From NCBI GenBank assembly GCA_049840735.1, contig JASGJN010000010.1:1-64000 (forward strand): 64,000 nucleotides of DNA, given 5' to 3'. A program made the position numbers and the translations under genes. Shown piece after piece: positions 48,160 through 51,214 of the stretch; within the stretch, counting starts at the first letter, position 1, and each line of letters starts with the position of its first letter. The notes under the pieces were generated by a model. That model saw only the letters and a program-made list of their open reading frames with translations, was not told where the DNA came from and did no database searches. This DNA comes from Anaeromyxobacter sp. (GTDB lineage: Bacteria; Myxococcota; Myxococcia; Myxococcales; Anaeromyxobacteraceae).

Positions 48160-49198
48160 TCAGGGACGCGGGCGCTTGAAGTACTCGACCTGCCAGGTGT
48201 GCACGGCCGCGTTGTGGCAGGCCAGGTCCGGACAGAACACGTGCGACCCGTCGTTGCGCGACACGAAGTAGAGGTCGTTGCAGTCGGCCGGGGCCAGCGC
48301 CGCCTGCAGGGCGGCCGCCCCCGGGCTGGCGATGGGGCCGGGCGGGAGGCCGGCGGTCGTGTACGTGTTGTACGGGTGGGCCGCCATGAGGTCGGCGCGC
48401 GAGATGTTCCGCGACCAGCGGCCGGTGCGCAGCATGGTCGCGTACATCACGGTGGGATCGGTCTGGAGCCGCATCCCGGTGCGGAGCCGGTTGTGGAACA
48501 CGCAGGCGATCCGCGGCCGCTCCTCCGGGCGCCCCGTCTCCTTCTCCACGATCGAGGCCAGCGTGACCGCCGGCCCGATCCCCAGCAGCACGCCGTCCTT
48601 CCGCTGCGCCTCGGCCCTGGCCCACTCGGCCTTGAACCGCTGCACCATCGCCACGGCGATGGCCCTGGCGTTCACGCCGCGCGGGAAGGCGTAGGTGTCG
48701 GGGAAGAGGAAGCCCTCCAGCGAGTCGTAGGGCAGGTCGAGCGACCGGGCGACCTCGGGGTCGCGCGCCACGGCCAGGAACTCCGCGCCGCTCGCCAGCC
48801 CGCTCTGGTCGATGATGGCCGCGATTCTCGTCGGCCCGCAGCCCCTCCGGCACGGTGAACTTGTAGACCTTCACCAGCCCGAGGTGGACGCGCTCCAGCG
48901 CCTCGTCCGGCGTGAGGCCGCCGCTGAACGCGTACTCGCCGGAGCGGAAGGGGCGGGGGTCGCGCTTCACGAACCGGAAATAGAGCCAGGCCCGGCGCTC
49001 CTCCGAGAGGACGCCCGCCTGGGCGAGCGCGCGGATCACCGCCCGCCCCGACGCGCCGGGCGGGATGACCACGACCTTCTCCTCGGGGCCGCCGTAGCGC
49101 GCGTGGCGGAACCCGGAGACCGAGCGCCAGGCCAGGAAGCCCACGGCGCCCGCCCCCGCGAGGAGCAGGACCAGGAGGATGAGCAGGGCGCGCTTCAC
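48160..49198 (-). CDS. mltG: Endolytic transglycosylase MltG; +1 frameshift at about 48825
   Basis: [26 protein letters not shown]...[13 protein letters not shown]...GLPPGPI. Confidence 0.95.
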
Positions 49199-49608
49199 GG
49201 CGTGCCTCGGTCCAGCCAGCCCTGCAGGATCACCGCCGCTGCCTCCGCGTCCACCATGCCCCTGGCATCCTTCGACGAAATCCCCCGGTCGCGCAAGCGG
49301 GTCTCCGCCTCGAAGGAGGAGAGCCGCTCGTCGTACAGCTCCACCGGCACGCCCAGCGCCGCCTCCAGGCGCGGCGCAAACGCGCGGGCGTAGCGGGCCG
49401 AAGGCCCTTCGCTCCCGTCCATGTTGAGCGGCAGGCCCAGCACGGCGCGCGTGACCTCGTAGTCCCTGGCGACGGCGGCGATGGCCTCCAGGTCCTGCCG
49501 CTCGTTGCGGCGGGTCACGGTGGTGACGGCGCGGGCGGTCCGCAGCACCTCGTCGGCCACGGCGAGGCCGATCCGGACCCGTCCCAGGTCGACTCCGAGC
49601 GTGCGCAT
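49195..49608 (-). CDS. ruvX: YqgF/RuvX family nuclease
   Basis: LGVDLG..RIGLAVAD, GLPLNMDG, DERLSS, VDAEAAAVILQ. Confidence 0.95.
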   Translation of the reverse strand: MRTLGVDLGRVRIGLAVADEVLRTARAVTTVTRRNERQDLEAIAAVARDYEVTRAVLGLPLNMDGSEGPSARYARAFAPRLEAALGVPVELYDERLSSFEAETRLRDRGISSKDARGMVDAEAAAVILQGWLDRGTP

Positions 49609-49654: not shown

Positions 49655-49690
49655 GGTCCGTGCGACGGACCATGGTCCGCGGCGCGGACC
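49655..49690. promoter_or_regulatory. Two tandem perfect palindromes GGTCCG-N5-CGGACC (candidate activator sites)
   Basis: 49655-49671 and 49674-49690, identical arms, different spacers. Confidence 0.7.
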
Positions 49691-49731: not shown

Positions 49732-49747
49732 TGGCACGGCGCGCGCT
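49732..49747 (+). promoter_or_regulatory. Candidate sigma-54 (-24/-12) promoter
   Basis: TGGCACG-N4-GCGCT with exact GG-N10-GC spacing; GGAGGA and ATG 49806 downstream. Confidence 0.6.
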
Positions 49748-49805: not shown

Positions 49806-50708
49806 ATGATCTCCCCCGCCTGCACCCCGGCCACCGGCCCGTCCTTCGAGCCGCTGGCCGCCCAGTCCGCCACCGCCAGCGCCCTGCACGCCGGCGCGGA
49901 TCGCCTGCTGGCGCTCCCCGCCGGGCGCTCCCCGCTGACCGCCGCGCCCGCCCAGGCGTACGCGGCGCGGACCGCCCGCCGGACCATGCTCGGCTACGCC
50001 AGCGCGCCGGCCCCCGCCACCCGGCCCAGGACCACCACCACCAAGAAGACCACCACGTCGAAGGGGGCGCTGGCCTTCCTCGACGACAAGACGCTCACGG
50101 TCGAGGAGAAGCTCTTCCGGTTCCTCCTCTACGTGGCCGACAAGTACGACAAGGCCATCGAGAAGAAGCTGGACGAGATCTCGGGGAAGTCGAAGGCCAA
50201 GACCACCTCCACGTCGGGCTCGAGCGGCACCAAGAAGAGCAAGAAGAAGGGGCTCTTCGGCTCCCTGGCGGGCTCGCTGGGCAAGGCGCTCAGCGTCGTG
50301 ACGCCGCTGGTCGGGCTGCCGCTCAAGCTGCTGGGCGACAAGGGGGTCATGTCGCTCGTGAAGCAGGTGAGCGGGCCGGTGCTGGCGGCTGGCGCCACCG
50401 CGCTCGGGATGCCCATGCTGGCGCCGGTGCTCGCGAAGGCCGGGCCGGAGCTGCTGGCGGGGGCGGCGAGCGCCCTGGAGAAGCTGACGGGAGGCTCTGG
50501 CGGCTCGTCGTCCGGGTCTTCCTCCGGCTCGTCCTCCTCGGGCACGAGCAAGAGCAGCAGCGCCTCGGAGCCGGACGTGTCGCAGAAGGACACGCTCGAG
50601 CTGCAGCGGCTCCAGGACAAGCAGAAGGAGATGTTCTCGCTGGTCTCCAACCTGCTCCGCTCCATGCACGACACGCGCATGGCGGTCATCTCCAACATCC
50701 GCTCCTGA
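49806..50708 (+). CDS. Hypothetical protein with T3SS needle/tip-filament-like C-terminal helix and hydrophobic core
   Basis: Low-complexity N-terminus, amphipathic/hydrophobic middle, Ser/Gly linker, C-terminus ELQRLQDKQKEMFSLVSNLLRSMHDTRMAVISNIRS. Confidence 0.75.
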   Translation: MISPACTPATGPSFEPLAAQSATASALHAGADRLLALPAGRSPLTAAPAQAYAARTARRTMLGYASAPAPATRPRTTTTKKTTTSKGALAFLDDKTLTVEEKLFRFLLYVADKYDKAIEKKLDEISGKSKAKTTSTSGSSGTKKSKKKGLFGSLAGSLGKALSVVTPLVGLPLKLLGDKGVMSLVKQVSGPVLAAGATALGMPMLAPVLAKAGPELLAGAASALEKLTGGSGGSSSGSSSGSSSSGTSKSSSASEPDVSQKDTLELQRLQDKQKEMFSLVSNLLRSMHDTRMAVISNIRS

Positions 50709-50716
50709 GGCGCGCC

Positions 50717-51214
50717 ATGGCCGACACGGAGCTGGAGCTCGAGGGCGTGGACGAGGTGGAGCGAGCGGTCGAAGGGGAGGGGGCGGACGACGGGCTGGAT
50801 GGCGACGAGCGCGCGGCGCTGGCGGGCGGGGCGACGCTGGCCGAGGTCCATGGGCTCACGGCCGAGCTGGGGGGCGCCATCCTCGACCTGGCCGAGGCAG
50901 AGCTGCGCGCCGGGCGGCTGGAGCAGGCCCGGACGCTGCTGGAGGGGCTGGTGGTTTCGAATCCTTTCGATGGCCACGCCTGGGGTCTTCTTTCGAGCAC
51001 CCACCGGAGGCTGGGGCAGCCGCTGGCGGCGCGCTTCTGCGCCGAGGTCGCAGTGAAGCTCGTTCCGGAGGACCCCTGGGCCCGGCTGGCCAGGGTCGAG
51101 AGCTGCCTGGCGATGGGCCAGGGGGAGGAGGCGCGGGCGGAGCTGTGTGCGCTCACAGACGACACGGAGGTCGGCGGCCGCGCGCGCATGCTCGCCGGAG
51201 CGCTCTCACGGTGA
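50717..51214 (+). CDS. TPR protein resembling SycD/LcrH class II T3SS chaperones
   Basis: 165 aa, acidic; TLAEVHGLT...[23 protein letters not shown], second repeat [10 protein letters not shown]. Confidence 0.72.

Follow-up and report, generated by a model that had tools for sequence, protein, structure and literature searches.

Which secretion machine is served by a gene pair that looks like a T3SS substrate and its class II chaperone when it is encoded with no injectisome genes nearby? The question was raised by a preliminary description of the window, that is, the whole stretch of 64,000 nucleotides of Anaeromyxobacter sp. DNA that was analysed. We confirmed the pair at 49806..51214. The sizes of ORF1 (300 aa) and ORF2 (165 aa), the 8-nt gap between them, all segments quoted from ORF1, and the flanks formed by yqgF and a cold-shock protein gene (csp) were as first described. 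The RuvX/YqgF flank was identified by PF03652 (E = 2.5e-42) and is divergent from ORF1. The designation 'orphan' holds locally, there being no injectisome genes in the 44-57 kb stretch of the window, but fails genome-wide, as a non-flagellar T3SS lies on other contigs. The gene mltG/yceG (48160-49198 of the window, minus strand) is apparently frameshifted here and intact in relatives; several further genes of the assembly also look frameshifted, so a sequencing error is likely.

ORF1 had no significant match in Pfam or NCBIfam and none among plasmids. An AF2 model based on a 92-sequence alignment consists of a disordered N-terminus, a confident helix (99-132), a helical pair of moderate confidence (179-228), a disordered linker and a second confident helix (258-299). 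Fold searches with this model (pLDDT 61) returned generic helix matches only (best Z 5.0), and Foldseek returned nothing at E<=1e-3.

Features of the locus and of further genes with the same promoter pattern
Feature	Position	Strand	Remark
ORF1, likely T3SS(2) substrate	49806..50708	+	300 aa; M. xanthus counterpart MXAN_5822
LAFLxDPxLSVEEKL block and long helix (aa 90-132)	50073..50201	+	also in Myxococcaceae counterpart
Gly/Ala-rich helix-turn-helix (aa 179-228) with one hydrophobic 19-mer (aa 192-210)	50340..50489	+	AF2 pLDDT 56-73
Needle-type C-terminal helix (aa 258-300)	50577..50705	+	AF2 helix, tail profile comparisons
ORF2, SycD/LcrH-like TPR protein, likely chaperone	50717..51214	+	165 aa
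ruvX/yqgF, conserved divergent neighbour, same intergenic region	49195..49608	-	context
Palindrome GGTCCG-N5-CGGACC, copy 1, predicted activator site	49655..49671	.	2 matches in window vs 0.01 expected
Palindrome copy 2, 19 bp after copy 1	49674..49690	.	same window count
Sigma54-like -24/-12 box (GG-N10-GC), facing ORF1	49732..49747	+	TT of -12 element absent
Further promoter-pattern genes	L214:177-1667, L212:5167-5811, L216:4131-5912, L213:202-1101		

Searches with ORF1 yielded 94 homologues at E<=1e-3, the named ones from Anaeromyxobacteraceae; conservation forms blocks near residues 90-103, 190-214 and 267-299. The ORF1 profile matched at least 63 of the 68 sampled genomes of the window's family; these family tallies are floors, since a stricter first look was applied. 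A TPR gene follows ORF1 in 54/54 family loci (a set that includes the window itself and duplicates), and a divergent ruvX lies beside it in 44; eight of the remaining loci are truncated and in two ruvX was not called. In Myxococcaceae the counterpart has 340-590 aa and shares both the 90-132 block and the tail; it lies beside ruvX, and a gene of the same TPR family comes after it. The best Myxococcaceae loci have the TPR gene in 30/30 and ruvX in 28/30 cases; the TPR gene was present in 17 of 20 further, hand-picked loci, two of which are without gene calls. Direct searches with the Myxococcaceae protein miss the window's genome, so orthology rests on synteny, the two shared blocks and the partner. 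One counterpart is identical to MXAN_5822 of M. xanthus DK1622, and its partner clusters with ABF88185. The TPR partner was also found in three of the five sctJ-positive genomes that have no match to MXAN_5822. In five other families ORF1 was found in none of 49 genomes, and sctJ matches there were at FliF level only. The order-level tallies include one unpublished genome (G162), on which no claim depends alone.

With 165 aa, three TPRs and a family-wide likeness that includes the N-terminal arm, ORF2 agrees with class II chaperones, which have about 140-170 aa. Its top NCBIfam family is LcrH/SycD (TIGR02552; E = 2.1e-11, 43.7 bits, under the cut-off of 104.8), and it is the best of 33 matches to this family in the genome. 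By HHalign, the TPR family scored 95% with SycD (109 columns), 60% with YscY and 0.2% with YscG. Of the 60 PDB matches listed, those to PcrH and AcrH had the longest single stretches, though generic TPRs scored higher. Complex prediction for the TPR protein and residues 84-300 of ORF1 gave a score of 0.02. The SycD likeness, combined with adjacency to the putative substrate at all 54 family and all 30 best Myxococcaceae loci, supports the chaperone pair that had been proposed, and ORF2 is likely a class II-like secretion chaperone for ORF1.

Of the three FlhA/SctV genes in the window's genome, two belong to flagellar clusters and the third to a non-flagellar cluster on contig C13. The latter reads gene 1, a weak sctI, sctJ, an inserted cassette, a sctQ-like gene, fliO and sctRSTUV; a sctL-sctN-sctO unit lies on contig C17. 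This is the only non-flagellar sctJ/sctV set of the genome, and it is of the short type. From its gene content we recognize it as the short Myxo system, T3SS(2), in dispersed form. Myxococcaceae possess both this system and the long T3SS*.

None of the five family genomes (of 68) without ORF1 has a true sctJ either: their best matches, if any, have E-values of 1e-16 to 1e-17, vs 3e-40 in the window's genome. In G157, G063 and G159, which are 96-100% complete and have no ORF1, sctV matches reached FlhA level only (43-44%). The ruvX-csp junction is clean in G157, and G063 and G159 retain only a TPR-like remnant. Eleven of the 63 ORF1-positive genomes are without a strong sctJ; all are fragmented (300-820 contigs), and the two that were rechecked do have sctV (68-71%). 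ORF1 is gained and lost together with the small T3SS. Its membership in T3SS(2) is indicated both by this co-occurrence and by a promoter shared with the short locus (see below), which together bear out the earlier suggestion that the pair serves a myxobacterial T3SS encoded elsewhere. The two-gene unit is conserved across myxobacteria and is a real satellite of the short myxobacterial T3SS.

The cassette on C13, at about 679.6-687.2 kb (L014:11600-19200), encodes VgrG, DUF2169, pentapeptide, DUF3540 and PAAR proteins of the T6SS spike type; it interrupts the T3SS operon after the sctK position and before sctQ, and G020 (L080) does not have it. Contig C17 carries two separate flagellar clusters (L018/L019 and L016/L017), the first of which adjoins a gene of >3,000 codons. 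In genus g6, ORF1 is deleted and a shortened TPR-like remnant is left next to ruvX (L170, L171).

The region upstream of ORF1 contains two copies of a palindrome and a promoter box that we take, from its consensus, to be sigma54-like. The exact palindrome occurs at 22 sites genome-wide, vs 1-8 for other spacers, and four of the 22 precede the three other T3SS units of the genome; sctQ carries a palindrome pair of its own. The sigma54-like box is present in 25/32 usable family loci vs 50/5,084 upstream regions of the window's genome (1%). Since the exact palindrome is kept in 3/54 family loci, a degenerate model alone carries across genomes. With 21 ORF1 promoters as its training set, none of them from the window's genome, this model placed ORF1, a comEA-like operon, sctQ, gene 1, radC and sctL within the top 12 of the 5,084 genes of the window's genome. 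A comM-like gene before recA, missed in gene calling, has the same composite promoter. The names comM and comEA are our assumption, based on Pfam content (ChlI/Mg-chelatase and HHH_3) and context. In other family genomes, with the threshold at the 99th percentile and longer stretches (700 bp) for the comEA-like genes, promoters over threshold preceded comM-like genes in 21/24, comEA-like genes in 21/23, radC in 12/23 and gene 1 in 8/8 cases; for the controls infA, prkA and tonB the count was 0/62. Exact composite patterns had been tried as well and were discarded (0/4 family genomes; 1, 1 and 2 matches in Myxococcaceae vs 3, 2 and 2 for controls).

In Myxococcaceae the family model gave 0/32, and a one-base-longer variant was present in 37/38 ORF1 promoters. 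A model of this variant (N8) scored 3/3 of the best comEA matches and 3/6 short gene-1 promoters far above null, with 0/9 long gene-1, 0/7 74-aa and 0/3-0/4 comM promoters; the N8 seed was chosen after a first Myxococcaceae fit had hit another, non-significant motif, and these counts are therefore not fully independent. The family-trained model likewise gave 0/9 for gene-1 promoters of the long locus. The pattern was not found before comEC. These data predict a regulon in which the ORF1 unit would be controlled by sigma54 and an activator, and which in the window's genome includes recA, radC and an XPB helicase gene. Both the shared promoter and the link to DNA uptake were overlooked in the preliminary description.

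The same pattern was seen before genes for a 496-aa protein (ahead of the XPB helicase), a 214-aa and a 593-aa protein, and a TPR lipoprotein-like gene; these are candidate T3SS(2) substrates or DNA-uptake parts. It also stands before repeated genes of 194-290 aa (L222:176-1048, L218:246-830; genomic sites C26:326631, C7:244968 and C12:95429) with no Pfam match at 1e-3. We take them to resemble transposases, suggesting mobile elements that may use the regulon.

The DNA-uptake genes also share the losses of the pair. G157, G063 and G159 are devoid of comEC, comEA and comM along with ORF1 and the T3SS. The comEC gene is missing in four of the five ORF1-negative family genomes vs 6/63 positives, all six of which are fragmented. 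Among Myxococcaceae, comparison of the lists showed that the four comEC-negative genomes, all of one genus, are four of the five without sctJ. Joint loss of comEC and the T3SS amounts to three lineages, and the figures are plain counts that include kin and are not independent. As comEC is common without a T3SS (32/34 in one family), any dependence is one-way. There are exceptions: G020 has the pair without comM, G099 has comEC without sctJ, and G179 (76% complete) is without the pair, yet has comEC, comEA and comM. In g6, a lineage without the system, radC and its motif remain. Altogether, the ORF1 unit is likely induced together with the DNA-uptake genes.

The C-terminal tail connects ORF1 to the T3SS loci by homology. 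When compared with 69,643 six-frame ORF ends of the genome, the tail had a single other match, gene 1 of the T3SS operon; HHalign of the ORF1 and gene-1 tails gave 98.2% (E = 3.8e-14). In the short locus, gene 1 (151 aa) is the first gene of the sctI-sctJ operon and thus occupies the sctF position; the spot before sctI-sctJ holds a needle or pilin gene (mxiH, prgI-like, hrpA) in Shigella, Providencia, Salmonella and Pantoea loci. The long locus also starts with a gene of the tail family, which clusters with MXAN_2434, the first gene of T3SS*. Furthermore, the long locus has ORFs of 71-77 aa, in 1-6 copies and in 25/69 Myxococcaceae genomes, that consist mostly of an ORF1-type tail and have no hydrophobic hairpin. 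The 74-aa ORFs are present in DK1622 by accession, with their locus position deduced from G062, where two identical needle-sized 74-aa ORFs with the tail lie in the long locus (L173:9252-9476 and 11667-11891, minus strand). With a profile of the 74-aa family, the ORF1 tail came out on top of 5,127 (E = 5e-12), and this family is closer to the ORF1 tail than gene 1 is (HHalign score 61 vs 44). For the SctF missing from T3SS*, we regard the 74-aa ORFs as the strongest candidate. Between the two copies in G062 lies a gene for a 390-aa DUF1521 protein (L173:9740-10912), followed by a TPR gene; it is a possible T3SS* substrate. A reading of the long locus as a mirror of yscE-F-G was rejected (upstream gene vs YscE, 0.3%; MXAN_2435-type TPR vs YscG, 0.2%).

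Similarity of the tail to true needles was weak and came from several routes. The needle family PF09392 was the top Pfam family for ORF1 homologues (9/92 at E<=0.1), for ORF1 tails (6/44 at E<=0.5) and for the MXAN_2434 family (31/80). In five whole-genome scans, 7/9 weak PF09392 matches fell inside T3SS loci or the ORF1 locus. The strongest score came from a 223-aa relative (E = 1.8e-5 over 5-71 of the 71 positions), still under the cut-off (25.2 vs 29.4 bits). The tail profile ranked five real needles 3, 4, 5, 6 and 16 of 5,119 C-termini, with E-values of 1.5-25. HHalign of tail and needles gave 50% (E = 1.6e-4), with a score of 23.5 vs a maximum of 14.4 in 100 shuffles. In the Atlas, the clusters closest to the tail are those of needles and tips (leads under 0.9). 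The tail of IpaC scored as high as needles (rank 3 of 5,127) and that of YopD ranked 2,501st. ORF1 itself did not match PF09392 or TIGR02105, and no family member exceeded any needle cut-off. PDB searches with the tail profiles and the 74-aa protein retrieved no needle, apart from one match at E = 1.1 in a separate search; the 74-aa family reached only 4% with needles by HHalign, and a fold search with an AF2 model of MXAN_2434 (pLDDT 52) gave no matches. SctF proteins are helix-turn-helix proteins of 60-90 aa, whereas ORF1 has 300 aa and a linker ahead of its tail; the 71-77-aa paralogues agree with SctF in size only. Nor is ORF1 encoded before sctI-sctJ, although its paralogue gene 1 is. The needle-type tail of the preliminary description is therefore upheld weakly, by PF09392 recurrence, ranks and shuffles, with every cut-off out of reach: the tail is a probable remote needle homologue, short of family membership. 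The 223-aa relative stems from family f4, in which a tail-family protein of 223-246 aa is encoded among three SycD-like TPR genes (L081:7635-8363, L082:9635-10375, L174:3454-4125) and, in L174, adjoins sctV.

The centre of ORF1 had been described as long and amphipathic or hydrophobic. Residues 192-210 are indeed hydrophobic and are the only segment at transmembrane level, marginally so (Kyte-Doolittle 19-mer, 1.76); the first of the segments quoted is amphipathic (1.0-1.3). A 19-mer value of at least 1.6 was found in 68/92 homologues, and the value for ORF1 falls between those of tips (0.7) and translocators (1.9-2.9). Homology to SctE/SctB was not detected: HHalign of the centre with single sequences of YopB, YopD, IpaB and IpaC gave <=0.8%, the SseC/YopD families were absent from the 21 families matched by ORF1 homologues, and ORF1 matched PF04888 at E = 0.48. 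The chaperone-binding motif [PV]xLxxP occurs in 4/92 homologues, at no shared position.

We consider it somewhat more probable than not that ORF1 is a chaperoned distal subunit, tip- or translocator-like, in a needle-type filament built by T3SS(2), and that it is likely co-induced with DNA-uptake genes. The analysis shows that the pair is conserved, syntenic and lost together with the T3SS, that the ORF1 tail is homologous to genes inside both T3SS loci, and that a promoter pattern is shared; control by sigma54 and an activator, export, binding by the chaperone, polymerisation, insertion into membranes and a part in acquiring DNA through cell contact are what we infer. The unit would be switched on with T3SS(2) and the DNA-uptake genes. 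The adjacent SycD-like TPR protein would keep ORF1, a likely substrate of the short system, soluble. The 151-aa product of the first gene of the sctI-sctJ operon would form the body of the filament, on which the C-terminal helix of ORF1 would stack, placing the hydrophobic hairpin at the distal end as a tip or translocator. Alternatively, ORF1 may be a translocator or pore-forming effector of T3SS(2), of the IpaC/SctB kind, with a generic amphipathic docking helix as tail and no needle. The adjoining class II-like chaperone gene, a hydrophobicity closer to translocators than to tips, and the rank of the IpaC tail are in keeping with this, but we find it unlikely: the same tail is the main part of the multicopy 71-77-aa proteins, which have no hairpin, and is also found at the end of the gene that occupies the sctF position, the YopD tail ranks far down, and no SseC/YopD family was matched. 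Less likely still, the tail family would build a periplasmic rod or short tube that feeds the pilus or secretin of another system, ORF1 capping or regulating it and never reaching the surface. Periplasm-type DNA-uptake genes are in the regulon, and the available parts of PMC3459982 report that Myxo systems have no secretin and propose a periplasmic needle for their ancestor. Distal contact with a membrane would better suit a protein that has a hydrophobic hairpin and a class II-like chaperone of its own, features that accompany such contact in SctE/SctB.

Other partners of the pair are improbable. The preliminary description had leaned towards the long predation system, T3SS*. In its favour, the 74-aa ORFs, which belong to the long locus, come nearest to the ORF1 tail, and Myxococcaceae carry both systems. 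Even so, the window's genome has the short set alone, and the common promoter is a mark of the short locus that long gene 1 (0/9 in both models) and the 74-aa ORFs (0/7) do not carry, leaving this partner very improbable. We give least credence to the flagellar export gate, the other option raised earlier, or to a role outside secretion in a shared stress or DNA-damage regulon. The genome does have two flagellar clusters, and recA, radC and the XPB helicase gene are in the regulon, but G157, G063 and G159 retain FlhA-level genes without ORF1 and sctJ/sctV.

Myxobacterial T3SSs have been described as having no SctF, tip or translocon in PMC3459982, PMC10433427 and PMC12075869, and the first of these contains an evolutionary model with loss of SctF in the basal myxobacterial lineage. 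T3SS(2) is reported to play no part in the killing of prey (PMC10196010, which cites Thiery 2022); the substrates of T3SS* are called unknown (PMC10433427). Outside subscription journals, we found no literature on MXAN_5822, 5821, 2457, 2460, 5654 or 2435, and no reports since 2021 on Myxococcus SctF or T3SS predation, on this pair or on the regulon. Our findings challenge the 'needleless' description, with every functional step remaining conditional. Since ORF1 ends in a weakly needle-like helix, is gained and lost with the T3SS and shares a predicted promoter with T3SS and likely uptake genes, needle-type parts are likely present in these machines, which may be active during DNA uptake. A bolder version, which we hold only tentatively and think doubtful, is that both loci encode divergent SctF-family subunits (the MXAN_2434 type, the multicopy 74-aa ORFs and gene 1 of the short locus), so that neither would be needleless, and that the short system is a competence-coupled T3SS which, with a filament tipped by a membrane-active ORF1, cooperates with the DNA-uptake machinery in breaching neighbouring bacteria or taking their DNA. 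If true, a competence-coupled T3SS would exist within the earliest-branching injectisome lineage. The analysis points to specific genes of a tractable model organism (MXAN_5822 together with its TPR neighbour, the 74-aa ORFs, and MXAN_2434), gives T3SS(2) a testable condition, DNA uptake, and offers the promoter element as a handle on the regulator.

Compared with known systems, ORF1 combines traits of several subunit classes. Its helix aligns in register with that of SctF (PrgI, MxiH, YscF; PF09392, TIGR02105) right up to the C-terminus, the tail has a conserved Q..S/N..I.N pattern, and paralogues occupy the sctF position before sctI-sctJ. Unlike SctF, it is 300 aa long, has a Ser/Gly linker in place of the N-terminal helix and PxxP turn, contains a hydrophobic hairpin, sits outside the operon and stays under every cut-off. 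It resembles the tip and filament proteins LcrV, IpaD and EspA in being a larger protein that ends in a needle-like helix, as does the T3SS filament protein Bsp22, and Atlas neighbours of the tail carry the tip/filament families PF04792, PF06511 and PF03433 on 12-17% of their members; however, the tail profile ranks LcrV 210th and IpaD 20th, and tips have no hydrophobic segment. With SctE/SctB (YopB/YopD-SycD, IpaB/IpaC-IpgC) it shares a hydrophobic centre, an adjacent SycD-like TPR gene and an IpaC-like tail score, but there is one substrate gene instead of two, no detectable homology of the centre and no conserved PxLxxP. Competence-coupled killing is known from the T6SS of Vibrio cholerae under TfoX and from pneumococcal fratricide. 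The predicted regulon is similar in that a contact or lytic machine would be co-regulated with comEA, comM and radC, as judged from promoters; it differs in that the putative machine is a T3SS, under predicted sigma54-like control. Finally, the core genes and their order in the window's genome match the short T3SS(2) (MXAN_5643-5654) and long T3SS* (MXAN_2434-2464) of Myxococcus. Where published accounts give these systems no SctF, tip or translocon, candidates are found here for each locus, together with a satellite pair and a shared promoter.
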